Source of the DNA: Candidatus Methylomirabilis limnetica
GTDB lineage: Bacteria; Methylomirabilota; Methylomirabilia; Methylomirabilales; Methylomirabilaceae
Length of the DNA: 32,000 nucleotides
Reading direction: 5' to 3'
Assembly: GCF_003044035.1 (NCBI RefSeq)
Contig: NZ_NVQC01000022.1
Span: 90,001-122,000 of the forward strand
Shown here piece after piece: positions 3,236 to 32,000 of this stretch (its first letter is position 1; each line of letters begins with the position of its first letter). Below the pieces are notes generated by a model. That model was not told the origin of the DNA, ran no database searches, and saw only the letters and a list, made by a program, of their open reading frames with translations. Position numbers and translations under genes: made by a program.

Positions 3236-5248
3236 ATGATGAAATGCTGGAGTAGTTTGGTCAAGAGGTGGTTGTGGGTGGCAGTTCTGTGGGCTTGCGG
3301 ACTGGGGAGCGCGTCAGGGCAGATGCTCAGACTCACTCCTGAAGAACCGGTAGAGCTTGGGCCGGTCGTAGTGACGGCGACTAAAACCGAAGTTCCCGTA
3401 ACGCAAATCACTGCATCTGTAACGGTCATCACGAAAGAGGAGATCGAAACTCGTCAGGTCACTCAGGTTTCAGACCTTCTCCGGGATGTGCCGGGGTTGA
3501 GTGTTACACAGATAGGGAGTCGCGGCGGCACCGTCTCGGTCTTTCCGAGGGGTGGCGAATCCCGCTTCAACCTCGTTCTGATCGACGGGGTCAAGGTGAA
3601 CGATGCCGGCGGCTTCTTTGACTTCAGCGACCTGAGCACTGACAATATCGAGCGGATCGAGATCGTCCGGGGGCCGCACAGCGCGCTGTACGGTTCCGAT
3701 GCTATGGGATCGGTGATCCAGATCTTCACCAAGCGAGGGAAGGGGGCCCCGCGAGTCGAGGCCTCGTTCGCGGGCGGGAATCTGAAGACCTTTGAAGAGA
3801 AGTTGAGTCTGGCTGGTGGTAGCGGAAGAGTCGGCTACTCGTTGAACGTAGGCAGGACCGACACCGACGGGAGCCTACGCACCAACAACGACTTTCGTGA
3901 AACAACCGTCAGCGGTCGCGTGGACTACGCCGTAGAGAAGGCGCTGGACCTCAACCTTGTCGTCCGGTTCACCGACAGTCTCTTCGAGTTTCCCACCGGC
4001 GATGCCGGCAACCTCTTCGGCCCGCTTGATCCGAGACAGTCCTCCGATCAGAAGCGGCTACTCGTTAGCGGTAAGGCCAGTCACACGCTGACGCCCTGGT
4101 GGCAGCAGACGGTGCAGGTCGGCTTCTACCGCCATCAGTCGGCCTTTGACGATCCATTCGACCCGGTAGATCCTCGCACAGGGCAGCTCATTGATTTTTC
4201 CGCCTTCCACAGCACCAACGAGGAACGCCGCGTATCTGCGGACTACTTCTGGAACCTGACTGCCCCGACCGTTTTTGATGTCTCCAGTCTCTTTACCGCC
4301 GGCTTCGCCTTTGAGCGGGAGGAGTTCGAACAGCGCGCTGCCGCCACAGAGACCGATTTTCCGTTTTCAAGCGCGAATGAGGCAAGCAGAGATAATAAGG
4401 CCGGCTATCTCCAGGGCCAATTCGACTGGAAGAAGCAGCTCTTTCTCACGGCGGGATTTCGGGTCGATGGGAACAGCACATTCGGGACTGAGGTGACCCC
4501 CCGCGTGTCGGGAGCCTACATCCTCCCATTCCTCGGGACTAAGCTCAGGGCCGGCTACGGCAAGGGGATCAAAGCGCCAACCTTCATCCAGAACTTCGGG
4601 ATCGGGAGTCAGTTTGTCATCGGCAATCCCAATTTGAGCCCAGAGCGATCAAAGAGCTGGGAGGTCGGATTCGACCAGCCGCTGCTCAAGGGCCTGGTCG
4701 AGTTGAATGCTACCTACTTTCACAATCGGTTCACCGACCTGATCGCTTTTGTTGGTGGATCGCCGAGCTTCCGGAATGTCCAGTCGGCCAGGGCAAAAGG
4801 GATCGAGGCCGCCGCCAGGGTGCATCCAGGGTTCGGCCTGACCGTGGGCGGCACCTACACATTCTTGGAGAGTAAGGTTCTCGACAATGGCGGCGTTGGA
4901 GGGACTGAACTACCGGTCGGCGCACCGCTGATCCGGCGACCGAAGCACAGGGGATCGCTTTCTATCGACCATGTCTGGGAGCAGCTCCACACCAACCTGA
5001 CGGCGACCTTTGTCGGCGCTCAGGAGGACCTCGACTTTCGTACTTTCCCCTCGCCACGGGTGACGCTCCCCGGCTACACCATCGTCGATGTTGCCTTCGC
5101 CTACCTCCTGCTCAAGGATCGCCTCCACCTGAGGGAGGTGTCACTCTTCGGAAAGGTCCAGAACCTCTTTGATGAGGGGTTTCAGGAGACCTTCGGTTTC
5201 TCTGCCCCGCGGATTACCTTTCTGCTAGGTTTTAAGGGCAGCCTATGA
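3236..5248 (+). CDS. btuB: TonB-dependent outer-membrane receptor, cobalamin/BtuB-like
   Basis: 670-aa ORF with a signal peptide, a TonB-box-like LGPVVVTATK, plug-domain blocks (IEIVRGPHSALYGSDAMGSVIQIFTKRG) and a long beta-barrel region. AAGGGGG RBS before the ATG. Preceded by the B12 riboswitch and followed by btuFCD-like genes. Substrate is inferred from context. Confidence 0.85.
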   Translation: MMKCWSSLVKRWLWVAVLWACGLGSASGQMLRLTPEEPVELGPVVVTATKTEVPVTQITASVTVITKEEIETRQVTQVSDLLRDVPGLSVTQIGSRGGTVSVFPRGGESRFNLVLIDGVKVNDAGGFFDFSDLSTDNIERIEIVRGPHSALYGSDAMGSVIQIFTKRGKGAPRVEASFAGGNLKTFEEKLSLAGGSGRVGYSLNVGRTDTDGSLRTNNDFRETTVSGRVDYAVEKALDLNLVVRFTDSLFEFPTGDAGNLFGPLDPRQSSDQKRLLVSGKASHTLTPWWQQTVQVGFYRHQSAFDDPFDPVDPRTGQLIDFSAFHSTNEERRVSADYFWNLTAPTVFDVSSLFTAGFAFEREEFEQRAAATETDFPFSSANEASRDNKAGYLQGQFDWKKQLFLTAGFRVDGNSTFGTEVTPRVSGAYILPFLGTKLRAGYGKGIKAPTFIQNFGIGSQFVIGNPNLSPERSKSWEVGFDQPLLKGLVELNATYFHNRFTDLIAFVGGSPSFRNVQSARAKGIEAAARVHPGFGLTVGGTYTFLESKVLDNGGVGGTELPVGAPLIRRPKHRGSLSIDHVWEQLHTNLTATFVGAQEDLDFRTFPSPRVTLPGYTIVDVAFAYLLLKDRLHLREVSLFGKVQNLFDEGFQETFGFSAPRITFLLGFKGSL

Positions 5249-14973: not shown

Positions 14974-15636
14974 ATGGACGACCAATATGAAAGCGCGGAG
15001 GCAGCGCGATGGCGGATGGTAGAGCAGCAGCTCAGGGCCAGAGATATCGTCGATGAGCGGGTCCTCACGGCGATGGGGAGGGTCCCACGCCACCTGTTCG
15101 TAGAGCCGGCCATGGAATGTTTCGCCTACGAAGACCGTCCTCTCTCTATCGGTGCCGGACAGACCATTTCCCAGCCCTATATTGTTGCGCTAATGATCCA
15201 ACTCCTCCGGGTGCAACCGTCGCATCGGGTCCTTGAGATTGGGACCGGTTCGGGCTATCAGGCCGCTATCCTGGCCGAACTGGCGGCCGAGGTCTATACC
15301 GTCGAGATCATCCCATCGCTAGCGGAAGGAGCCTGCGCCCACCTGGAGGCTCTCGGATACCGCAATGTGCACGTCAGACATGGGGACGGATATGAAGGAT
15401 GGCCCGAGTTTGCTCCCTTTGACGGGATCGTGGTCGCTGCCGGCGCTCCGCGGATCCCGTTACCGCTGATCGAGCAGCTACGCGAGGGGGGGCGAATAGC
15501 GATCCCGGTAGGGAGTGCGAGGGAAACGCAGGATCTGATCCTCGGAGAGAAGCGTGGCGGGCAATTCATGGTCCGCTCGATTGCACCCGTACGCTTCGTG
15601 CCGTTGACTGGAAAGGGAGGCGCCGAGGACTGGTGA
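14974..15636 (+). CDS. pcm: Protein-L-isoaspartate O-methyltransferase
   Basis: 220 aa with GAGQTISQPYIVALM and the SAM-binding VLEIGTGSGYQAAILA. Confidence 0.9.
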   Translation: MDDQYESAEAARWRMVEQQLRARDIVDERVLTAMGRVPRHLFVEPAMECFAYEDRPLSIGAGQTISQPYIVALMIQLLRVQPSHRVLEIGTGSGYQAAILAELAAEVYTVEIIPSLAEGACAHLEALGYRNVHVRHGDGYEGWPEFAPFDGIVVAAGAPRIPLPLIEQLREGGRIAIPVGSARETQDLILGEKRGGQFMVRSIAPVRFVPLTGKGGAEDW

Positions 15637-15638
15637 TA

Positions 15639-15813
15639 GTTCAAGGTTCAAGGTTCGGAGTTCAAGGTTCAAAGTTCAAAGTTCATCGTGTTTGCAGATT
15701 CAGATCTCCTACGCCTGGCATAGTAAGTAGAACGCAATCGTATTTTCTCTATGAACCTCGAGCTCCGAACCTTGAACCTTGAACCATGAACCTTGAACCA
15801 TGAACCTTGAACT
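15639..15813. repeat. Inverted arrays of tandem heptamers (GTTCAAG-type) filling the pcm-rhomboid intergenic region
   Basis: The left array has 7 units at 15639..15687: GTTCAAG x2, GTTCGGA, GTTCAAG, GTTCAAA x2, GTTCATC. A 63-nt unique spacer follows. The right array has 9 complementary units at 15751..15813: ATGAACC TCGAGCT CCGAACC TTGAACC TTGAACC ATGAACC TTGAACC ATGAACC TTGAACT. It starts 3 nt after the pcm stop and ends 3 nt before the rhomboid ATG. Confidence 0.9.
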
Positions 15814-15816
15814 ACT

Positions 15817-16509
15817 ATGATCCCACTCAGGGATAACATCCCCTCCCGTCGCACCCCCGTTGTTACGGTTGGGCTCATCGTCGCGAACATCCTTGTCTAC
15901 GTGAGCCAGTTGATGTTGCCGCCACAGGAGGCGGTACAGTTTATCCACCTGTATGGTCTCATCCCACTGGAGATCAGCGGTGGCGATCTGCTGGTGCCGC
16001 ACCCCGTTCCGCTCTACGCCACCGTCTTCACCTCAATGTTCGTACATGGGGGCCTGTTCCACCTTGGCGGCAACATGCTCTACCTCTGGATCTTCGGCGA
16101 TAACGTAGAAGATAGGATTGGACGGCGAAAGTTTCTGGTCTTTTATTTGCTCTCCGGACTGGCGGCAGCGGCTACCCAAATCTGGACTGATCCCGCTTCA
16201 AAGATCCCAATGGTCGGGGCCAGCGGGGCGATCTCCGGCGTGCTGGGAGCCTATCTCTTCCTTTTTCCCCATGCCCGTGTCCTCACCCTTATACCGCTCG
16301 GCTTTTTCTACCGGCTCGTCGAAGTCCCGGCATTGATTGTTCTGGGGTTCTGGATCATCGTCCAGGTACTGAACGGCGTGGGAACACTGGGCGTTCAGGT
16401 GGGGGGCGTCGCCTGGTTCGCCCACATCGGGGGGTTCGTCGCAGGCCTCGGTATGGTAGTGCTGTTGTCAGGCGGTCGCAAGTGGCTTCACTGGAGGAAT
16501 CGGCTATGA
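15817..16509 (+). CDS. Rhomboid family intramembrane serine protease
   Basis: Polytopic 230-aa protein with HGGLFHLGGNMLYLWIFG, catalytic GASGAISGVLGAY and the catalytic His in FAHIGGF. Confidence 0.88.
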   Translation: MIPLRDNIPSRRTPVVTVGLIVANILVYVSQLMLPPQEAVQFIHLYGLIPLEISGGDLLVPHPVPLYATVFTSMFVHGGLFHLGGNMLYLWIFGDNVEDRIGRRKFLVFYLLSGLAAAATQIWTDPASKIPMVGASGAISGVLGAYLFLFPHARVLTLIPLGFFYRLVEVPALIVLGFWIIVQVLNGVGTLGVQVGGVAWFAHIGGFVAGLGMVVLLSGGRKWLHWRNRL

Positions 16510-23559: not shown

Positions 23560-24627
23560 ATGTCCAATATAATTGACCTCAAAGGGCTGAGCCTTGAGGA
23601 GATGGAGCGTTTTGTTTCCGACCACGGCGAGCCGGTCTACCGTGGCCACCAGCTCTTCCACTGGATCTACGGGCGCGGCGCACGTACGTTCGCGGAGATG
23701 ACCGATCTGCCGATCGCGTTACGCGAGAGGCTGGCCGAGCGGGCGCGCATTGGCACCCTCGCTTCTCTCGGCAGAGAGGTCTCCCGGGACGGCACGCGGA
23801 AATACCTGTTTGGCTGCGCGGATGGGCGAGCTATTGAGGCGGTGCTGATCCCCGATGAGGGGCGGCTGACCGCTTGTCTTTCCACCCAAGTAGGTTGTGC
23901 TCTGGCCTGCGCCTTTTGCCTGACTGGAACAATGGGGTTCGTCCGGCACTTGCAGGCGGCTGAGATCGTCGATCAGACGCTCGCGCTCCAGCGGGATCTT
24001 CTGCCAGGAGAACGAATCGGCAATCTGGTGTTGATGGGGATGGGGGAACCACTCCATAACTACGACGCCACTGTGAAGGCGCTCACGATCCTGACTCACC
24101 CCCTGGGCCTTGCGTACCCTCCGCGTCGGATCGCCATCTCCACCGTCGGCCTGGTCCCAGAGATCGTGCGGCTCGGCCAAAGTGGACTTCTGGTGAACTT
24201 GGCCGTGTCGCTCCATGCGGCCACTGATGAGCTTCGCGACCGTCTGGTTCCGGTCAATCGCCGCTACCCGCTTAAGGCATTGATGGCGGCACTCAGGGCG
24301 TATCCGATTCCGTCGCGCCGCCGTCTCACCTTTGAGTATGTGCTCATCAATGAGGTGAACGACCGACCGGAGGATGCCCGTGAGCTGGTAAAGCTGCTGC
24401 GTGGCCTTCGGTGCAAGATCAACCTCCTGGCCTTAAATGAGGCCCCTGCCATCCCATTTCGCCGACCTTCACGGGAGCGCGTCGAGACCTTCCAACGTAT
24501 CCTGAAGGCAGCCGGCCTCCTGACCACCATCCGCGAGAGTCGCGGCATGGACATCTCGGCCGCCTGTGGCATGTTGGTCACCGAGACCAACCAGAAAAAA
24601 CTTGACACTGCCGGGCATCTTGCCTAA
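23560..24627 (+). CDS. rlmN: Radical SAM 23S rRNA/tRNA adenine-C2 methyltransferase RlmN
   Basis: CALACAFCLTG radical-SAM cluster motif, MGMGEPLHNYD, ISTVGLVP and a C-terminal DISAACG. The ATG at 23560 is preferred over the TTG at 23548. Confidence 0.9.
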   Translation: MSNIIDLKGLSLEEMERFVSDHGEPVYRGHQLFHWIYGRGARTFAEMTDLPIALRERLAERARIGTLASLGREVSRDGTRKYLFGCADGRAIEAVLIPDEGRLTACLSTQVGCALACAFCLTGTMGFVRHLQAAEIVDQTLALQRDLLPGERIGNLVLMGMGEPLHNYDATVKALTILTHPLGLAYPPRRIAISTVGLVPEIVRLGQSGLLVNLAVSLHAATDELRDRLVPVNRRYPLKALMAALRAYPIPSRRRLTFEYVLINEVNDRPEDARELVKLLRGLRCKINLLALNEAPAIPFRRPSRERVETFQRILKAAGLLTTIRESRGMDISAACGMLVTETNQKKLDTAGHLA

Positions 24628-24635
24628 GATGTCTT

Positions 24636-24714
<79 letters not shown>

Positions 24715-24723
24715 ATAATCGAT

Positions 24724-24754
24724 GGGTTAGGCGTTCTCGCCTAGCCCTTTTTTT
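24724..24754 (+). terminator. Rho-independent terminator after tRNA-fMet
   Basis: The GGGTTAGGCG / CGCCTAGCCC stem (one G-T pair) with a TTCT loop is followed by 7 T residues. Confidence 0.75.
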
Positions 24755-25036
24755 ATGCACCATGTCCAGTAGGCCCATAGTAGGCCCAGCTTATTAAGTC
24801 CGCCTCACTTGGAAGCCCTTCAAGGTTGGCCCTTCACATTCGCGAAGTCGAGTGATCGAATCCCCTATACGATGTAGCTCGTAAAGGGATCATATGAGAT
24901 GCGCTCAGGGCTGACCGCAGACAAGACAGCCTAGCCGCCTTTCCGATGCCTACCCTTGCCATCGTTATCAGTTTTCCTGCCTTGTGAAGTCGTGGGGAGA
25001 ACAGCCCATGGAAGTCTCGCTTTGGTGAGACCGTTC

Positions 25037-25064
25037 TTGACAGATTCTCGCCTCCTGATATGAT
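25037..25064 (+). promoter_or_regulatory. Candidate sigma-70-type promoter with adjacent palindromic operator for the antitoxin-toxin pair
   Basis: TTGACA (25037..25042), 16 nt, TATGAT (25059..25064). Immediately downstream TTGATCTAGTTATATCAA carries the TTGAT/ATCAA inverted repeat, as expected for TA autoregulation. Confidence 0.4.
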
Positions 25065-25096
25065 TGATCTAGTTATATCAACCATGATAGGAGCGT

Positions 25097-25390
25097 ATGG
25101 ACATGGTTAAAAAGGTAAACGCGCTGAATGCGCGAAAGAAGCTCGGCCAGCTCCTCGAGGAAGTGTACTACAAGGGTGACCAGTTCGTCATCGAGCGCGC
25201 GGGTCGCCCCATGGCGGCCGTGGTGCCGGTCTGGCAACTGGAAGAGCGAGCGACGCGTAAGGAGCGCCTCCTCGGGACGGTCGAAAAGGTGTGGCAGCAG
25301 ACGAAGCATCTAAAACCAGGGATCGTCGAGCGAGAGGTGAAGCAGGCTATCAAGGCCGTTCGGGAGAGGGCCGGGCGCCGGAAGGCATGA
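25097..25390 (+). CDS. Type II antitoxin, Phd/YefM family
   Basis: 97 aa. The N-terminus VNALNARKKLGQLLEEVYYKGDQFVIERAGRPMAAVVP is typical of the Phd/YefM fold. The stop overlaps the toxin ATG (ATGA). The start may be the ATG at 25103, which has better spacing from AGGAG. Confidence 0.75.
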   Translation: MDMVKKVNALNARKKLGQLLEEVYYKGDQFVIERAGRPMAAVVPVWQLEERATRKERLLGTVEKVWQQTKHLKPGIVEREVKQAIKAVRERAGRRKA

Positions 25391-25820
25391 CTCGGGCGGT
25401 GCTTGATGCCAATGTGTTGGTGGGTGCCATCCTCAGCCCAAAGGGCACCCCCGCGAAGGTCCTCACTGCCTGGCAGGCCGAGCAGTTTCATCTGGTCCTC
25501 TCCGAGGCGGTCCTCGACGAGATCGACCGCGTCTTGCGCTACCCAAGGATCGCTAGGCGCCACGGCTGGTCCGAAGAGCGGCTTCAGGCTTTATCGAGGA
25601 TCTCGCCCATCTCGCGATTATGACGCCAGGTGTGGTCTGCCTCACTGTGATCTCAGAAGATCCACCGGATGACCACTACCTAGAATGTGCGATTGAAGGG
25701 GATGCCGACTATATCGTGAGTGGTGATCAGCATCTCCTCGAGCTGGGGGAATACCAGGGGATCAGAATCCTCACGCCGCGAGCATTCCTGAATATTCTGA
25801 GAAGACAACCGAGGCCATAG
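25387..25820 (+). pseudogene. PIN-domain (PIN_3-type) toxin interrupted by a frameshift
   Basis: Frame A (25387..25623) reads MTRAVLDANVLVGAILSPKGTPAKVLTAWQAEQFHLVLSEAVLDEIDRVLRYPRIARRHGWSEERLQA. Frame B, open from 25557, continues FIEDLAHLAIMTPGVVCLTVISEDPPDDHYLECAIEGDADYIVSGDQHLLELGEYQGIRILTP. Joined near 25588..25592 they give a full-length PIN_3 toxin, which implies loss of 1 nt. Confidence 0.65.
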
Positions 25821-25859
25821 AAGAAGGGCGATTTTCGCTGAGTGAAGTTCGTCGGTGGG

Positions 25860-28286
25860 TTACCGCAGGACGTAGCCCAGCGCTCGGTACCCGGCCTGCC
25901 GCCTCGCCGCCATCCGCGCCAGCACCGGAACAGCCATATCGGCATAGTCATAGACGATCACCTCGCTCTTGCCCTCGTGACCGCGGTGCAGGCGGCCGAC
26001 GTATTGCGCGAGCGTGCCCTTCCAGGAGATGGGCATGGCCAGAAACAGGGTGTCAAGACGAGGATCGTCGTAGCCCTCGCCGAGATAGCGGCCGGTCGCC
26101 AGGATAAGGCGCTCCTGGCCGATCGAAGAGCGTAGGACGATTTCGGCGGAGCGGCGTTCGGCGGTTGCCATGCCGCCTCGCAGCACCACCAGATTTCGGG
26201 TGAAGCCCTTGAAGCGGGCCTGGAGCGTCTCGAGATGGTCGCGCCGCTCGGTCAGGACAAGGGGACACCGGCCTGCCGTCAACGCCGTCAGCACGTCGTC
26301 GGAGATGAGCGCGTTGCGCGCCTCGTCTTGCGCCAGGGCGGCGTAGAGTGCCGAAATCGAGAGGCGATCCCCTTCCATTCCCGGCGGTAAGCGGAAGCTC
26401 GTCTCGCGTAGGCACACGCGATGTTTGAAACCCCGCTGTGCGGCCTGGGACTTGGGATCGACCCGGTGCCGCACCGGACCACACTGCATGAAGATGATCG
26501 GGTGGTGTCCATCTTTCCGGGCGACCGTCGCGGACAGCCCAAGGACGTACCGGGCCTTTGACCGTCGGGCCACCAATTCGAAGCTCACGGCGGACAGGTG
26601 ATGACACTCATCCACGATGAGCTGCCCATAGCCCGCGATCAGGTCCGACACTTCGCCCTTGCGCACCAGGCTCTGTATGAGCGCCACGTCGAGACGACCC
26701 GTCGGCTTGCGGCGACCGCCGCCAATGACTCCGATGTCGCAGGCCTCTACCGAGAGGAACGTCTTCAGGCGCTCGACCCACTGGGTGAGAAGCTCGCGTC
26801 GATGCACCAGGACGAGCGTACTGCACCCCCTTTGGGCGATCAGCGCGGCTGCGACCACCGTCTTACCGAAGGCGGTCGTCGCAGCCAACACCCCGAAATC
26901 ATAGCGAGCCATTGCGTGGAAAGCCGCAGCCTGCTCCTCGCGCAGCGTGCCGAGGAAGCGGACGGGAAGAGGTGTGCCGGACTCCCGGCGGTCTTCGACC
27001 TCGGCTTTAATCCCATGTGACCGCAGCAGTTCTCTGGTCTCGTCGAGACACCCGCGGGGCAAAGCAACATGGCGCGGATGCAGCACGGCACAGGACACGA
27101 TGCGCGGCTTGCCGAAGGTCGAGAGCCGCATGGCCTGAGCACGGTAAAACTCGGGGTTCTGAAACGCAGCGAGTCGGACGAGCCGCACCACCATCGAGGG
27201 TGGCAGGCTGGAACGGTCGATGTAGAGCTCGTCCGCAAGCACCACGCTCACGTGGCTCGGCAGCGGACCGGTGACCGCCGCCGGCTCGCGCCGCCGCGAT
27301 GGCGACATCCGCCATGGCTGATCTGCGCCCTCATCCTCGACCGGCATCCTGACGCCGAGCACACTGCCACAGGCTTCTGCCTCTGCGACCCGCTCGAAGA
27401 CGGCGTCGGCTTTCATCCGGGAAACTGACGAGAGAAAGGTCCACTGGTCTTCGTATGGCCGAAGATCGTTGTCTACGAAGACGCTGTTGCCGCGTTCTCG
27501 GACGCGCCGCTGAAGCGGCAATGCGATGAGGTTGCCGAAGCCGCCGGTCGGCATGGTGTCTTGGCTCGGAAAGAACCGATCATAGGAGGCAAAGCCGATC
27601 TCCGGCCGACGCTCCATCGTCTCAGTCAGGAGAAGGGCACCAAGCTGCCGGGCGTCACGCGCCGGCACCGGCTCGGAGAAGAAGATCCAGACATGGCCTC
27701 CTTCGCCTGAGCGGGACCGTTCAAGAGCCGCCGGCACGTCCCTGGCACGGCAGGTGCCCATGTAGGCGAGCGCGTCGGCGGCCCAGCCCTCGCCGTCAAA
27801 GTCGGCCGCCAGGAACCAGCAGGTCTCGTCGGCGAGAAGCGGATACACGCCGGCAACAAAGTCGGCGGCCCGCGGTCGCATCCGGTCCTTCCCGCGAAGG
27901 TGGCTCTCGATCACCTCGTCGGACACGGGGATGAATGCTTGGTTCGGGCATTCTCCGCACTTCACCTGCGGCTTGCCACAGACGCCCTTCACCCATTCGT
28001 TGGCGCATGCCGGCGCGTACCCTGATCGCCCTGTCTTGGCATTCTCCCAGCGCAGTGGGTACACGTCCTGGCGACCCGCGAACAGACGGCGGAACAGGGT
28101 GACCTTATCCGTTGCTCCAGCAGTGCTTGTCGCCTGACCGGCATCGACGGTGGACATCGGAGCTGCCAGCGGGGGCCGGCTCAGCAGGTCCGCTAGCCGT
28201 CTTTCCAGCGAAACCCGCTCCGCCTCAAGATCGGCAAGTCGACCCTGTATCCGCGCGACGTCTTGGTCAGCCTCTTGCTCTGCCAT
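25860..28286 (-). CDS. Archaeo-eukaryotic primase (PrimPol-like) domain fused to an SF2 DEAD/DEAH-type helicase
   Basis: 808-aa intact ORF with a GAGG RBS. It has an N-terminal coiled coil, a Cys cluster CANEWVKGVCGKPQVKCGECPN, and AEP motifs FLAADFDGE (DxD), SRSGEGGHVWIFF (sGxH) and YDRFFPSQD...GGFGNLIALPL. Helicase motifs are ATTAFGKTV (Walker A), VDECHH (motif II), LSAT (III) and QYVGRLHRG (VI). Confidence 0.85.
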   Translation of the reverse strand: MAEQEADQDVARIQGRLADLEAERVSLERRLADLLSRPPLAAPMSTVDAGQATSTAGATDKVTLFRRLFAGRQDVYPLRWENAKTGRSGYAPACANEWVKGVCGKPQVKCGECPNQAFIPVSDEVIESHLRGKDRMRPRAADFVAGVYPLLADETCWFLAADFDGEGWAADALAYMGTCRARDVPAALERSRSGEGGHVWIFFSEPVPARDARQLGALLLTETMERRPEIGFASYDRFFPSQDTMPTGGFGNLIALPLQRRVRERGNSVFVDNDLRPYEDQWTFLSSVSRMKADAVFERVAEAEACGSVLGVRMPVEDEGADQPWRMSPSRRREPAAVTGPLPSHVSVVLADELYIDRSSLPPSMVVRLVRLAAFQNPEFYRAQAMRLSTFGKPRIVSCAVLHPRHVALPRGCLDETRELLRSHGIKAEVEDRRESGTPLPVRFLGTLREEQAAAFHAMARYDFGVLAATTAFGKTVVAAALIAQRGCSTLVLVHRRELLTQWVERLKTFLSVEACDIGVIGGGRRKPTGRLDVALIQSLVRKGEVSDLIAGYGQLIVDECHHLSAVSFELVARRSKARYVLGLSATVARKDGHHPIIFMQCGPVRHRVDPKSQAAQRGFKHRVCLRETSFRLPPGMEGDRLSISALYAALAQDEARNALISDDVLTALTAGRCPLVLTERRDHLETLQARFKGFTRNLVVLRGGMATAERRSAEIVLRSSIGQERLILATGRYLGEGYDDPRLDTLFLAMPISWKGTLAQYVGRLHRGHEGKSEVIVYDYADMAVPVLARMAARRQAGYRALGYVLR

Positions 28287-28418
28287 CTAGACCTCGTACG
28301 ATTATCGAAACTGGCCGCAGTCTATACCCCTACCTACTATAAGCCATACGTAGGCGCAGGCAGTACCTCCTCAATCGCCGCCTCCGTCTGTTCAAAGGGG
28401 CCGTGTCTTCCTGGCAGG

Positions 28419-28665
28419 TCACACGCCTTGGGGCTCGCCTCTATTGCTCATCCGAAAGCGGGTGTACTCTTCGACGCTCAGCTCTAGGTCTCGCAGGACC
28501 TTTCGTAGAAGAGGCCGGACGATGACCTGTGAGCCGCGGTCAGGGATCACCACGATGCGTCTCTGACTCCGTTGTGCGACATCCTATCATAGCGCTTGAT
28601 GAGAATCCAATGACCAGGAGATGGGTATGATACCCGATCTGACACTCACGCGTCCGGGAGATACT
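28419..28665 (-). pseudogene. Degenerate HicA-like (YcfA family) toxin remnant
   Basis: The minus-strand frame reads ...SVSPGRVSVRSGIIPISWSLDSHQAL-stop-stop-DVAQRSQRRIVVIPDRGSQVIVRPLLRKVLRDLELSVEEYTRF. The C-terminal half matches the HicA pattern (..tvPvh..kel..GlLrkILrdlgLsveEf). There is no start codon, and there are two in-frame stops (TGA TAG). Confidence 0.45.
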
Positions 28666-28736
28666 GACGAATCTCCCGAGGAATTTGGAGCCGGTGAGGC
28701 TGTTGCGGGTGGGGGTAGCTAACTGCTTAGATACGT

Positions 28737-28791
28737 TGGTGCCGGAGGCGGGAATTGAACCCGCATAGGCCGAAGCCCGCAGGATTTTAAG
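28737..28791 (-). pseudogene. 3' half of a tRNA-Leu (UAA anticodon loop to CCA); probable integration scar (att)
   Basis: The reverse complement is CTTAAAATCCTGCGGGCTTCGGCCTATGCGGGTTCAATTCCCGCCTCCGGCACCA. That covers anticodon loop, 3' anticodon stem, long variable arm, T-arm, acceptor 3' strand and CCA. The sequence 5' of the loop (…CTGGGCGGT) cannot pair with TCCTG, and no D-arm or 5' acceptor strand is present. Confidence 0.7.
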
Positions 28792-28910
28792 ACCGCCCAG
28801 CGAGGACCCAGCAAATCCGCGCCCAGAGCCACTTTATCAGGATTAACGCGGAGTTAGCGATCGTCTATCATACCGATGGAGTATGACACAATGCGATAGT
28901 TTCCGACCAC

Positions 28911-28933
28911 CTACTAGCACCGCTACTAGCACC
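28911..28933. repeat. Tandem 11-mer CTACTAGCACC x2 (12-bp period) near the tRNA fragment
   Basis: CTACTAGCACC G CTACTAGCACC lies about 120 bp from the tRNA-fragment breakpoint. Its position is compatible with recombinase arm-type binding sites. Confidence 0.5.
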
Positions 28934-29276
28934 AACGCCGAAACCCTATACCCGCATGGCTCCTAAGTCGAGGAGGTGCCATACACCCTTCAGCCAAGAC
29001 GAGACGGAGGCCCCGACCGGGGGGCCAGGGGCCAGACTCAACCACGTTAGAGTGCCCTTTTCTTACGCATCTCATACAAAAGAGTGTGCCCCCAAATAGA
29101 CCGCCGTTGGACCGTGTCTGGACAGAGTTTGGACACAGGCGACGGGCGGAGGGGAGCCAGACAACTCACTGTCACCGAATGGGAGTTGACGACACCCCGC
29201 ATCAGGTGGGAGACCGTAGGCGGAGCGTGGGTGCTTTGGTTTTCGTGAGTTGGACCATGAAAAAGGAGCGTCACGC

Positions 29277-29492
29277 ATGGATGACCGGCTCTTAAGCGCG
29301 CAAGAGGTGGCGGCCCTGCTCAACCTGAAGGTCTGCACGGTGTATGACTTGGTGGCGAGGGGCGACCTGTCAGCAAGCCGCTTTGGGAGAAAGCTACGGA
29401 TTCGGCCTGGCGCGGTGGATGCCTTGGTGGTGGCACGAGAACAGCCCGAGGCCTCGCATGATACGGGTGGCCGGATGCAACGATTCGAGTAA
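29277..29492 (+). CDS. Excisionase-family / MerR-like helix-turn-helix DNA-binding protein
   Basis: 71 aa. LLSAQEVAALLNLKVCTVYDLVARGDLSASRFGRKLRIRPGAVDALV matches the excisionase-family HTH pattern. AAGGAG RBS about 9 nt before the ATG at 29277. The ORF track starts at 29250. Confidence 0.75.
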   Translation: MDDRLLSAQEVAALLNLKVCTVYDLVARGDLSASRFGRKLRIRPGAVDALVVAREQPEASHDTGGRMQRFE

Positions 29493-29564
29493 TCTGTGGC
29501 ATGCACGATCATGACAGCTAACACCATGAATTATCACGATAATAGTGTCTGTCCCTATTTTACT
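29457..29564 (+). repeat. Direct repeat copy 1 (about 108 bp), covering the last 11 codons of the excisionase gene plus 72 bp downstream
   Basis: Ungapped hand alignment with 31709..31816 gives 98 of 108 identical positions. It contains GCATGC and an imperfect inverted repeat AATAGTG-TCTGT-CCCTATT (29541..29559). Confidence 0.9.
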
Positions 29565-29755
29565 ATTTTACGATGCGCAGACGCCGGATTTATCACGCAG
29601 CCTCGCCCAATGATGTAACCCGCGTTCACCAAAGCCCGTGGATATACGCGAAGTACGTGACGAAAGGGCAGCCATAAACTGGAAGGTTGGGGTCTATCTT
29701 GGGACAAGGGGTCACTCGATCCCTTCTCCCTGCCACTCCTCCAATCTTGATCGAG

Positions 29756-31417
29756 TCAGTAGATGAGATTCCCCCCGAATTGGGGGGTCCCTCCCGACTT
29801 AATCGTCTGTATCCAGCGCTCCAAGAGGTCCTTCTCGTAGCCCCAGAACTTCTTGCAAAGCTCCAGATACTCGATGACGCTTTCCCTTTCGCCCCGTTCC
29901 AACAGTTCCTTCGCAAGGCTCATGCTGGGGCCAAAAGAGGTCAGCGTGCCCCCACCGAGTGTGTGCCCCGCCTTTATTAAATACGCCTTCGCCTCCTGTA
30001 TGTTGCCCTGTCTTAACGCAAGCTGCCCCAGGATCATGTTGCCGTCATGCACTGCTGGTCCGTACTCCTCCTCACCCGTGTGCCGAGATGCGATTTCAAG
30101 CAACTCAGTCGCAAAATTCTCAGCTTTCTTCAGCTCCCCAGCTTCAACTGCGGCTTTCGCAGCGTCACCCAGTATCATGGACCTCCACCCCTCATCAGGC
30201 GCGCCTGGTATCGCTTGTTCCCACTGTGCCAGTTCTTTCTTGGCAAATTCGGTTTTTGCTTCAGTTGACTGAGCGCGCAGCCGCTCAAGCTTGTAGTGCC
30301 GCCCTAAGCTCATGGCGTTCGACCCAGATCCTCCAGACCGTTTGAGGAGTTCCTCCGCGAGACCACGGTAATCCTGCTTGCTCAGCCCCGTCCCGTAAAT
30401 CATGGACCCATATTGAGAAAGAGTACTCCCGGCCGCTAAAATAAGCGCGGCGTCTGATGATCTCCGCAGCTCTTCCCTGGCTTTTTTCGCAAACGCTCCG
30501 GTCGTTTCAGCTGGATCCACAGATGTTGGAAGTCCGTTTTGATTCAGGCCATTCACGCCCATAATTCCCAGCGCGTAGAGATAGCCCAGGCTGGCGGACC
30601 ATTCAGGGTTCTTCGGCTCAAGCACCTGCGCCCGCTTCAATGCGCTCTCCGCCAGTTCTTTGTCCGGAAGTTGAAAAAACTTCGCGGCGCTCCTCATCAC
30701 TTTTGTGCTCGTCTTGTACCCCTCGACCTGCTTAAGCCACAGCGCCTTTGCCTGCCGATAGCCCTCCGGGTCCGCTAATGAGTGCCCTGCTGGGTCGATC
30801 GTTGCCGCCGGCGTGCCAGCCAATTCGGCCTCTGGGCGGTTTTGGATGAGCCAGAGGATGTGCCGCCGGCGTGCCTCCAGCGTCACGGCCGCCCCGGACA
30901 AACGGAGTGACCGCGCAAAATAATAATCGAGCAGGCGTGCCCGGGCATCCAGATCCTCCGGATTACGCTTCAGCCCGTCCTCCAACTGTTGGGCGTCTTC
31001 CCTGGACAAGTGCCGCCGCGCCTCCCTGGCCACCGTCTCCACTGCTGGCCCAGGAACACCTTGCTGTTTTTCCTGCCGAACGACATTCGGCTGGCCACGG
31101 TCTGGCGGCTCGGGCTCGAGGTCGTCGCAGCGCACGTAGCCGGCCCTTCGCGGCGAGGCCACCTCCGTGACTCGGCACCAGTGTCCCTGGGCATTGAGGA
31201 GGGCAAAATCGACCTGCACGATCGCGTCTCGCGCGAGAGCACTCAGCACCTTGCTCGTGGTGGCCATCTGGGCATAGAGGGGCACCCCGTCACGCTTCAC
31301 GGTTGCCCGTCCAGATAGCGCGTCCGCCTCCACCGTCCAGCCAACCGCGCCCGTCATGAGCCCGCACACAATGGCCCAGCGCAGCGCATGTACCCACAAT
31401 CGCCATGGCTCCTTCAT
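29756..31417 (-). CDS. Secreted or membrane-anchored protein with N-terminal SH3b-like domain and long TPR-like helical-repeat region; function unknown
   Basis: The ATG at 31417 is preceded by AGGAGG (7 nt spacing). Hydrophobic signal/anchor WRLWVHALRWAIVCGLMTGAVGWTV. SH3b-like segment ATVKRDGVPLYAQMATTSKVLSALARDAIVQVDF...GHWCRVTE...GYVRCDDL. The rest is Ala/Leu/Glu/Lys-rich helical repeats ending ...WIQTIKSGGTPQFGGNLIY. Confidence 0.7.
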   Translation of the reverse strand: MKEPWRLWVHALRWAIVCGLMTGAVGWTVEADALSGRATVKRDGVPLYAQMATTSKVLSALARDAIVQVDFALLNAQGHWCRVTEVASPRRAGYVRCDDLEPEPPDRGQPNVVRQEKQQGVPGPAVETVAREARRHLSREDAQQLEDGLKRNPEDLDARARLLDYYFARSLRLSGAAVTLEARRRHILWLIQNRPEAELAGTPAATIDPAGHSLADPEGYRQAKALWLKQVEGYKTSTKVMRSAAKFFQLPDKELAESALKRAQVLEPKNPEWSASLGYLYALGIMGVNGLNQNGLPTSVDPAETTGAFAKKAREELRRSSDAALILAAGSTLSQYGSMIYGTGLSKQDYRGLAEELLKRSGGSGSNAMSLGRHYKLERLRAQSTEAKTEFAKKELAQWEQAIPGAPDEGWRSMILGDAAKAAVEAGELKKAENFATELLEIASRHTGEEEYGPAVHDGNMILGQLALRQGNIQEAKAYLIKAGHTLGGGTLTSFGPSMSLAKELLERGERESVIEYLELCKKFWGYEKDLLERWIQTIKSGGTPQFGGNLIY

Positions 31418-31708
31418 AGCTTTCCTCCTGAGATGCCCCTGCCAACGCACCAAGAATCACCCCCTGCGACCTATCTTCCCATCACTCATCTCCCCCTGAG
31501 CGCTTCACTTTCAGTGATATATGGACAGTCACTCTCCCTTGAAATCCTTTCTTGGTCTTCCCCTCTGCAACATGCGTATTACTCGTCTAGTTTCCTGCGC
31601 ACCTCCCAGATGAACCCGTCTCTTCCGCAGCGGCCGCTATGTCATCGTGTGCCTTCGAATCGCGGTCGTGCCGAACGATCGCCAGGTGATCATTCCTTCG
31701 GTGCCTTA

Positions 31709-31816
31709 CATGATACGGGTGACCGAATGCAACGATTCGAGTAATCCGTGGCATGCACGATCATGACCGCGAACACCACGAATTGTTACGATAATAGTGT
31801 CTGTCACTATTTTATT
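31709..31816 (+). repeat. Direct repeat copy 2 (about 108 bp)
   Basis: Matches 29457..29564 (98/108 identical). It retains the codons ...HDTGDRMQRFE-stop without an upstream HTH, and carries the perfect inverted repeat AATAGTG-TCTGT-CACTATT (31793..31811). Confidence 0.9.
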
Positions 31817-31853
31817 GTGTGCATTATGGCCAGTAGGCCCAATTGTTGTCACC

Positions 31854-31897
31854 GGTCATGAGAAACTGTACCAGGAATGGTCATGAAAAGTGTACCA
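31854..31897. repeat. Tandem iteron-like direct repeat GGTCATGA(G/A)AA(AC/-)(T/G)TGTACCA x2
   Basis: GGTCATGAGAAACTGTACCA (31854..31873) and GGTCATGAAAAGTGTACCA (31879..31897) are separated by 5 nt, about 40 bp after direct-repeat copy 2. Confidence 0.55.
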
Positions 31898-32000
31898 CCT
31901 TTAGGGGGCATTTCTCGTAAAAAAGCCGTACCATCGATCCCTCACACGAAACCAGGAGGGATGCGATGGAGGGAGTCGGAGTAGGAATTGATGATTAATT

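Follow-up and report, generated by a model that had tools for sequence, protein, structure and literature searches.

A primase-polymerase fused to an XPB-like helicase in Candidatus Methylomirabilis limnetica and its possible role in nucleic-acid-directed conflict

An AEP domain and an XPB-like motor in one reading frame

We analysed a 32,000-nt stretch of the Candidatus Methylomirabilis limnetica genome (contig NZ_NVQC01000022.1, positions 90,001 to 122,000, hereafter the window), in which one gene encodes a fusion of an archaeo-eukaryotic primase (AEP) domain, of the primase-polymerase (Prim-Pol) kind, with an XPB-like superfamily 2 (SF2) helicase. The gene is a single unbroken open reading frame (ORF) of 808 codons that begins with ATG and ends in a stop codon at 25860-25862, and its product is identical to WP_107562370.1 of Ca. 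Methylomirabilis limnetica, a record that bears the name 'restriction endonuclease subunit R'. It sits in a 4-kb segment bounded by a tRNA-fMet gene and an attR-like fragment of a tRNA-Leu(UAA) gene, and its GC content is 65% vs 58-59% in the flanks. An original prediction, made by reading the sequence alone, had described an uninterrupted 808-aa ORF with a coiled coil, a Cys-rich segment, the AEP motifs and an SF2 core, and all of these parts were confirmed with Pfam, alignment and AlphaFold (Table 1).

Table 1. Positions of the gene, its parts and the surrounding features (window coordinates unless a homologue locus, L, is named)
Feature	Position	Strand	Basis or remark
Whole gene, 808-aa AEP primase-polymerase / XPB-like SF2 helicase fusion	25860..28286	(-)	ORF list, Pfam
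Residues 1-36, N-terminal coiled-coil-like single helix	28179..28286	(-)	AlphaFold, heptad-like sequence
Residues 60-296, AEP (Prim-Pol) catalytic domain, Pfam AEP-TOTE	27399..28109	(-)	PF22548, PADLOC, CAPP homology
Residues 94-113, Cys4 zinc-ribbon-like insert (C94, C103, C110, C113); H129, C156 nearby	27948..28007	(-)	Alignment
AEP motif I, D162-F-D164, metal-binding DxD (AADFD)	27795..27803	(-)	Invariant
AEP motif II, S193-GEGGH198-VWIFF203	27678..27710	(-)	G194, H198, W200 invariant
AEP motif III, S234-Y-D236-RFFPSQD243	27558..27587	(-)	S234, Y235, D236, R237, P240, Q242, D243 invariant
Residues 344-445, beta/alpha domain before motor core	26952..27257	(-)	AlphaFold secondary structure, Foldseek
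Residues 446-808, XPB/Rad25-like SF2 motor, two RecA lobes	25863..26951	(-)	Pfam, PDB, Foldseek
Walker A, F473-GKT476	26859-26870	(-)	Invariant GKT 474-476
DECH, 559-562	26601-26612	(-)	Invariant
SAT (585-587) and RED-like R590-K-D592	26511-26534	(-)	A586, T587, R590, D592 invariant
Helicase motif VI, Q761-R768 (QxxGRxxR)	25983-26006	(-)	Q761, G764-R765, R768 invariant
tRNA-fMet (CAT), one segment boundary	24636..24712	(+)	ARAGORN; Rfam tRNA 66.9 bits
Phd/YefM antitoxin	25097-25390	(+)	Pfam; context, outside the enzyme
Frame-split PIN_3 toxin	25291-25623 + 25620-25820	(+)	Pfam, profile positions 1-76 and 88-115
HicA-like remnant, upstream of gene	28425-28622	(-)
tRNA-Leu(UAA) 3' fragment, attR-like, other segment boundary	28737..28792	(-)	Alignment to intact tRNA-Leu(taa)
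565-aa ORF	29756-31453
DUF4143 ATPase genes, upstream of PLD long form	L087/L088/L089 6682-7980; L096 6682-7980; L097 6603-7964

The AEP domain matches the Pfam family PF22548 (AEP-TOTE) nearly end to end (E 3.9e-98; 328.1 bits at a cut-off of 27; profile positions 1-227 of 230) and is homologous to the Prim-Pol domain of MpCAPP (7nqd/7nqf), a demonstrated primase-polymerase among the CRISPR-associated Prim-Pols (CAPP; Zabrady et al. 2021, PMC8211822; PDB 7NQD/7NQE/7NQF/7P9J). CAPP and the fusion protein share the N-terminal 'LFxGRxDV' and the DxD, GxH-WIFF and FPxQ...GGxGNLIxxPL motifs; motif I aligns with the CAPP 'YDID' site, motif II with 'NRGYHIWIFF', and the DxD site corresponds to the residues changed in the inactive CAPP mutant D177A/D179A (PMC8211822). 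When 60 homologues of 43-82% identity were aligned (alignment A2), the catalytic residues D162, D164, H198 and D236 proved invariant, in agreement with the original prediction, and so did all six zinc residues (C94, C103, C110, C113, H129 and C156), with the same conservation pattern in a broader alignment of 122 representatives. The two proteins nevertheless differ in several respects: identity outside the motifs is ~22-24%, the Cys4/His zinc insert of the fusion protein is absent from MpCAPP, where it falls in an alignment gap, the TPR and PriCT domains of MpCAPP are absent from the fusion protein, and the window contains neither cas1/cas2 nor a CRISPR array.

In the C-terminal half, SF2 motifs I, II, III and VI are all intact, and Pfam places ResIII/DEAD at residues 448-590 and, weakly, Helicase_C at 671-768; the RED-like R-K-D after motif III is a further likeness to XPB. 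The NCBIfam matches are partial only, to CRISPR-associated Prim-Pol type A1, XPB, RadD and UvrB, and none of them is an equivalog for the fusion protein. A search of PDB sequences returned XPBII 6p4f (E 6e-20), AfXPB, deposited as RAD25 (E 1.3e-14), and CAPP (1.7e-11). With Foldseek, the top 14 PDB matches are all XPB (TFIIH XPB and archaeal XPB-Bax1; E ~2e-18), the alignments to whole XPB chains cover ~490-500 columns, and the Marinitoga CAPP Prim-Pol domain is matched at a target-normalised template modelling (TM) score of 0.75-0.82 (E ~1e-12). XPB/Rad25 (TFIIH XPB; archaeal XPB-Bax1, PDB 6P4F/6P4O/6P66) is the best match in sequence and fold for residues ~345-808, with the differences that here the motor is fused to a primase-polymerase and that the gene is horizontally mobile and not a core repair or transcription gene.

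The AlphaFold model has a mean predicted local distance difference test score (pLDDT) of 79 and a predicted TM score (pTM) of 0.69. It places one long helix (residues 2-36, pLDDT ~69-87) before the AEP core (pLDDT 80-95), which is followed by a disordered linker at residues ~297-343, the beta/alpha domain at residues 344-445 and the two RecA lobes. The N-terminal helix is likely to be a dimerisation element, and in the model residues 344-445 occupy the place of the N-terminal, damage-recognition-like domain of XPB. Judged from profile matches and predicted fold, the protein belongs to the AEP superfamily, to PF22548 and to the XPB-like SF2 helicases. Both catalytic centres are intact as well as conserved, and in predicted fold one part of the protein is a primase-polymerase and the other a DNA-opening translocase of the XPB type; the helicase is predicted to be a monomeric XPB-type SF2 motor and not one of the hexameric SF3/SF4 replicative type.

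Family size, naming and spread

The fusion protein has matches at E<=1e-10 in at least 8,000 clusters of 90% identity, the best 120 of which are 69-92% identical to it and 710-962 aa long. At E<=1e-30 we found 3,630 proteins among 1.84 billion representatives of 50% identity clusters, a count that includes helicase-only relatives. Identity to proteins of Alpha- and Gammaproteobacteria, Eremiobacterota and Verrucomicrobia is 66-73%, and the distribution is clearly patchy and horizontal. Strong purifying selection acts on the gene family, with ratios of nonsynonymous to synonymous substitution rates (dN/dS) of 0.08-0.19 at dS of 0.56-2.5 in ten pairwise comparisons within the family. Two gene copies were observed in several sources (L004; L029 and L071, which come from the same Mesorhizobium genome; plasmid NZ_CP096256.1), and one copy is split into two ORFs in L004, L067 and L070, which indicates that pseudogenisation occurs in the family.

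Non-CRISPR homologues of CAPP are typically found in mobile genetic elements (MGEs), most often with a helicase domain, and the family of the fusion is mentioned as 'CAPP-helicase' (PMC8211822). The architecture is not described in Kazlauskas et al. 2018, and no experiment on it was found in our literature search. The earlier description of an uncharacterised system goes too far if it is taken to mean unseen: the architecture has already been seen and named, the family is huge, catalogued and computationally predicted, and the window copy is an ordinary representative of it.

The homologues P0069, P0075 and P0085 are named 'TOTE conflict system archaeo-eukaryotic primase domain-containing protein' in RefSeq/UniRef, a name that the original prediction had given correctly and that accords with the PF22548 match. 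TOTE is expanded as TPR, OB, TBP, Effector in a passage of PMC12458937 that cites Aravind, Iyer & Burroughs 2022. The Pfam and RefSeq names would suit an effector of a canonical TOTE system whose partners are nearby or have been lost in this copy alone. The naming partners, in contrast, are absent here and from the close homologue loci examined. No TPR-OB (S1/CSD) protein and no TBP-domain protein was found beside the window gene, among the 25 commonest families of 256 neighbouring ORFs (positions +/-1 and +/-2 at 82 loci) or in the annotated contigs, and the 565-aa ORF nearby has sub-threshold TPR matches only and a signal-peptide-like N-terminus. Because TPR-OB and TBP partners are absent, the subfamily is a solo gene and not a TOTE system. 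Membership in an actual TOTE system is not borne out, and the view of the enzyme as a TOTE effector, largely refuted for this subfamily, is in our estimate very improbable.

Long forms and other fusions

The window protein is a short form, without a nuclease tail. When the C-terminal tails of the 122 full-length representatives were surveyed, 64 had none, as here, and 54 (~44%) carried a PLDc_2 domain of ~150 aa with an intact HxKx4D. DUF559/Vsr-like endonuclease motifs were recognised in the tails of another four, judged from sequence and without Pfam support in the one protein scanned. Furthermore, a Bles03-like tail (PF08939, ~150 aa) is present in P0066, P0080 and P0104, each ~70% identical to the window protein, and rare N-terminal fusions involve PNP_UDP phosphorylase, GNAT and FMN_red-like domains. 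A conserved core whose terminal nuclease and small-molecule domains are exchanged in this way is a usual mark of conflict systems. In coupling a motor to a nuclease, the long forms parallel XPB-Bax1, with the difference that the nuclease is a fused PLD domain in the former and the separate Bax1 partner in archaeal XPB.

PLD forms are common in Clostridia, and we observe that PLD long forms sit in defence-island-like places. They adjoin PARIS-like, DUF4143 and Cas9 loci; the genes near them include AAA_15/AAA_21 with RloB, an AAA-ATPase_like/PDDEXK_9 protein, Fic and MazE, and a complete type II-A Cas9-Cas1-Cas2-Csn2 locus lies directly downstream of one long form. Additionally, in three contexts, two of which have the same downstream genes, an AAA_14/DUF4143 ATPase gene is found directly upstream of the PLD form, co-oriented and ~20-37 nt away, and the two may constitute a two-gene unit. 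DUF4143 ATPases also flank short forms, at 3 of 82 loci.

Neighbourhoods of the short forms

For the neighbourhoods we used 80 homologue loci from GTDB species genomes, 58-73% identical to the window protein, together with eleven annotated contigs or plasmid regions. Upon BLAST clustering of ~1,370 ORFs from 81 loci and the window, no conserved partner gene emerged, as no cluster other than the gene itself was present in more than 16 sources, and in re-searches with profile hidden Markov models the best-spread neighbours were tyrosine recombinases, at 21 of 82 loci. The most frequent Pfam families among the 135 ORFs at +/-1 were DUF736 (14), Phage_integrase (9), ResIII (8), SNF2-rel_dom (7) and AbiEii (6), followed by Resolvase (3), DUF4143 (3), Fic (2), Gp49 (2), HTH_37 (2) and GNAT (2), and among the 121 ORFs at +/-2 they were Phage_integrase (7), AbiEi (4) and HTH_37 (3). 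Within 10 kb, the 35 loci with full flanks contained recombinases in 12 cases, SNF2-SWIM helicases in eight, DUF736 in seven and AbiEii in seven. The PADLOC tally of neighbours was dominated by seven SNF2 proteins and otherwise uninformative.

Toxin-antitoxin and defence neighbours of the short forms comprise AbiEi/AbiEii, ParE, Gp49/HTH_37, HicB, PIN, GNAT/TacA and RES-Xre. For instance, in L094 (81% identical) the gene shares the interval from ligA to an MFS transporter gene with a MarR-like gene and a ParE pair. It is accompanied by HicB and an SNF2-SWIM helicase in L095 (82% identical), and by AbiEi/AbiEii and Gp49/HTH_37 in L086 (79% identical). The Labrys homologue has HTH_17 with PIN_3 and an HD-domain protein, and the homologue in L098 has a relaxase and a serine recombinase beside the gene as well as TacA/GNAT and Phd. 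Overall, the short-form subfamily is a gene on its own, and the islets that hold it vary and are rich in toxin-antitoxin and mobile-element genes. The tabulation of homologue neighbourhoods, which had been proposed as a check, returned toxin-antitoxin genes and defence islets, but also many copies on conjugative plasmids and integrative and conjugative elements (ICEs).

At ~10-12% of the short-form loci (L008, L009, L015, L017, L019, L025, L028 and L095), an SNF2 helicase of ~830-930 aa with a SWIM-like zinc finger is encoded directly downstream and co-oriented, and an AbiEi-AbiEii-AEP/helicase-SNF2 block recurs in L009, L015 and L019. Nucleotide similarity ends within ~0-26 nt of the ORF ends in 95% of 3,849 locus pairs, and the flanking DNA of the window is matched only by L095; since synonymous sites are saturated, this comparison is uninformative on a mobile unit.

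These neighbourhoods bear on a reading of the fusion as an enzyme of DNA repair or damage tolerance that has spread horizontally, in which the motor would open lesions or stalled forks, the Prim-Pol would re-prime, fill gaps or join ends, and the nuclease of the long forms would incise. Such a protein would resemble XPB-Bax1 or the LigD-type multi-domain repair proteins. The best structural relatives of the motor are indeed the XPB of nucleotide excision repair and TFIIH and archaeal XPB-Bax1, MGE-borne Prim-Pols with repair activities are known (AgaPP, PMC11724360), and the protein sequence is strongly conserved. The spread is patchy and horizontal, however, the variable islets hold toxin-antitoxin and defence genes and not repair genes, there is no ligase or Ku partner, and some hosts have multiple copies per genome or plasmid; taken with the likenesses, this leaves a repair enzyme improbable.

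Phages, plasmids and the replication question

We found no full-length fusion in 50,697 phage genome records (tblastn, >=80% of the protein covered); the phage matches are distant SF2 helicases only, in the C-terminal half and at <33% identity. A full-length copy is present on 98 of 72,556 plasmids, mostly alphaproteobacterial, with those listed ranging from 78 kb to 1 Mb, and 91 of the 166 plasmid records with a match are predicted to be conjugative. The carrier plasmids have their own replicon types. In both plasmids that were inspected the gene lies in an accessory, MGE-rich region, namely among DUF736, DUF6878, a recombinase-in-trio insertion and a strawberry-notch gene in pDSHI01, and after TniQ, near VapBC, an integrase and transfer genes (relaxase, coupling protein) in S. 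meliloti pMl1.

Replicative primase-helicases resemble the fusion in that a single polypeptide holds both the priming domain and an NTP-driven motor and that mobile elements often carry them. Those of pRN1 ORF904, P4 alpha and the D5-like type are hexameric SF3/SF4 helicases located by origins, whereas the fusion has an XPB-type SF2 motor, has no origin-like repeats nearby and is absent from the 50,697 phages. No iterons, partition genes or cas genes were found in the window or beside the gene, the window contains no CRISPR array-like repeats, and no integrase adjoins the gene, so that the earlier statement that it does not belong to a replication module is upheld. An ordinary replicative primase-helicase was considered and does not fit the SF2 motor, the lack of iterons, the absence from phages and the large size of the carrier plasmids, although these findings would still accommodate a function in the service of conjugative elements.

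A broader alternative is that the enzyme primes or opens DNA for its carrier element, for example in complementary-strand synthesis after conjugative entry or in replication of an excised circle, and that the window copy is a leftover of such an element. Sog and TraC are plasmid primases that make the complementary strand after conjugative entry. In line with this, DUF736 (14/135 ORFs) and integrases (9/135) are the commonest immediate neighbours, a recombinase lies within 10 kb at 12/35 full-flank loci, the 98 plasmids carry full-length copies and 91/166 matching records are predicted conjugative, transfer or element genes are close to the copies in pDSHI01, pMl1 and L098, and the window copy occupies a tRNA hot-spot with element remnants. 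Non-CRISPR helicase-bearing CAPP homologues are also typically in MGEs (PMC8211822). On the other side, the motor is of the XPB-type SF2 kind and not the SF3/SF4 kind of known replicative primase-helicases, phages lack the fusion, many loci are small islets between housekeeping genes without transfer or recombination genes, and the gene is under purifying selection where element genes have decayed. Moreover, about half of the family carries a fused nuclease, PLD or Vsr-like, which is hard to square with a priming role. We give a service to the carrier element a limited chance. The original prediction had proposed selection for a benefit to the host; selection is supported by the dN/dS values, but since many homologues are on conjugative plasmids, ICEs and mobilisable elements, the benefit may go to the mobile element.

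A possible role in nucleic-acid-directed conflict

The reading that we prefer is a joint one, to which we assign about an even chance: the gene would encode an active, self-contained DNA enzyme, it would have reached Ca. Methylomirabilis limnetica by horizontal transfer as the cargo of a mobile or defence islet, and the enzyme would serve nucleic-acid-directed conflict, either defence or inter-element competition, and not the replication of its carrier element. A conflict role is backed by the defence-island contexts and by the fact that about half of the family is fused to a nuclease, both of which strengthen the original proposal. A defence function is plausible as an inference.

A conflict role also has a precedent in DRT7/UG10, a defence reverse transcriptase with an N-terminal PriS-like AEP, where the AEP primase domain is required for anti-phage activity (bioRxiv 10.64898/2026.02.16.706125). 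Like DRT7/UG10, the fusion has an AEP domain within a single-protein enzyme, and a weak PADLOC match to RT_UG10_large (residues 196-274, E 1.3e-3) reflects marginal AEP similarity; unlike it, the fusion lacks a reverse-transcriptase domain and has the SF2 motor in its place.

Several observations weigh against a role in conflict. The window protein carries no nuclease or other obvious effector. The search with PADLOC, which had been suggested as a check, recognised no defence system: the matches are to accessory 'PrimPol' models (PDLC01465, E 4.7e-87; PDLC01101), with partial helicase matches to PbeA, type IV REase and HamB, no system-defining protein model of PADLOC-DB v2 was matched, and the PrimPol model is classed as a Cas-associated accessory and not as a system. 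A sequence identity of ~70% across phyla is unexpected for a component of a fast arms race, and the combination of AEP, XPB and nuclease would plausibly also fit a repair toolkit. Furthermore, a third or more of the close homologues are within ICEs, conjugative plasmids or mobilisable elements, with DUF736, strawberry-notch, relaxase, TniQ and recombinase genes as neighbours, and such settings fit an element-serving role, such as priming after transfer or anti-defence.

If the enzyme does act in conflict, the following mechanism can be proposed. The coiled coil would dimerise the protein, and the XPB-like motor would bind duplex DNA and spend ATP on translocation and opening, as XPB does in TFIIH or with Bax1. 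On the exposed strand the AEP domain, aided by the zinc insert, would prime and extend DNA. On invading DNA, whether of a phage, a plasmid or another element, unscheduled opening and priming would yield branched or displaced structures, which would block replication or packaging of the invader or leave its DNA open to nucleases. Cutting would be performed by the fused PLD nuclease in the long forms and by host-encoded nucleases for the short forms.

A more specific and rather unlikely version of the conflict reading is that the short form, which lacks a nuclease, acts as an immune system of one protein with priming itself as the effector. Here the motor would open the DNA of the invader and the Prim-Pol would start unscheduled synthesis, jamming replication or packaging, or, as an alternative output, the DNA product would trigger neighbouring toxin-antitoxin modules. 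Defence by de novo priming would need no nuclease, no depletion of NAD or nucleotides and no membrane effector.

The fusion is predicted to join de novo DNA priming with XPB-type opening, a pair not seen together in any characterised system. Should it be a defence enzyme, the known systems would gain one that consists of a single gene and follows a new effector logic, and CRISPR-associated Prim-Pols, the primase domains of DRT7 and XPB-nuclease machines would be linked in one theme. Should it serve its element instead, the plasmids and ICEs of rhizobia and roseobacters would be seen to carry an establishment factor of a new kind. The window copy is a clean example from the NC10 phylum and by itself adds no new biology.

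Local surroundings of the gene

Upon examining the source contig (L082) in the orientation of the gene, we observe, in order, thrC; tRNA-Gly, tRNA-Cys and tRNA-Leu(UAA); an Xre-RES pair; a 553/565-aa ORF; HTH_17; the tRNA-Leu(UAA) 3' fragment; the HicA-like remnant; the AEP-helicase gene; the split PIN_3 and Phd/YefM; tRNA-fMet; and rlmN. Both tRNA boundaries that had been read from the sequence are real. The tRNA-fMet is supported by ARAGORN and Rfam and shows initiator features on direct reading (a C1:A72 mismatch and a GGG/CCC anticodon stem). At the tRNA-Leu fragment ARAGORN and Rfam called no tRNA, the Rfam scan of 24000-32000 giving tRNA-fMet only, and here the support comes from alignment: apart from one mismatch, the fragment equals the 3'-terminal ~55 nt of the intact tRNA-Leu(UAA).

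The intact copy is ~5.5 kb further, outside the window, and the pair lies at 3895-3981 and 9487-9550 of L082. Because of this match, the two look like the attL/attR of a ~5.5-kb integrative element, which contains HTH_17 (excisionase-like), the 565-aa ORF and RES-Xre, has no integrase between its att-like ends and looks like a degraded integrative element that lost its integrase. The AEP-helicase gene is outside this neighbouring element. The window has no further copy, at <=3 mismatches, of the 3' end of tRNA-fMet that could be a second att site, and a minus-strand promoter scan upstream of the gene gave nothing convincing. The gene had been singled out as the only large intact one of its islet, which does not hold, as the 565-aa ORF and the RES-Xre pair of the neighbouring element, the latter just past the window end, are intact as well.

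The frameshifted PIN toxin of the original prediction was recovered as PIN_3 split over two frames, and the split is repeated in independent metagenome contigs (L082-L085). The degenerate HicA found weaker support. The remnant has no Pfam match, and at the DNA level it shares 76-81% identity with a hicB/hicA-like block of L095 (3115-3176, 3687-3818), in which the hicA-like relative lies just after a HicB-like gene, has a sub-threshold HicA_toxin match (E 0.23) and is itself split. In L095 the hicB/hicA block is downstream of the AEP-helicase gene on the same strand, and the order in the window, with the remnant upstream, is permuted. A circular intermediate, a tandem duplication or independent toxin-antitoxin shuffling could account for the permutation.

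Other repeats were also observed in the window. A 112-nt direct repeat, 90% identical, occurs at 29451-29562 (the 3' end of HTH_17) and 31703-31814, 2.25 kb apart, and the 30-nt stretch at 31812-31841 after the second repeat is 80% identical to 24748-24777, located 36 nt downstream of tRNA-fMet. These repeats may have been left by related elements that integrated in tandem, or they may be arm-type or att-like sites. Finally, facing arrays of ~6-7 heptamers, AGTTCAA-like and reverse complement GAACCTT-like, are found at 15638-15685 and 15752-15812, in the intergenic region between the ORFs 14974-15636 and 15817-16509, and they may form a regulator-binding array or a long hairpin.

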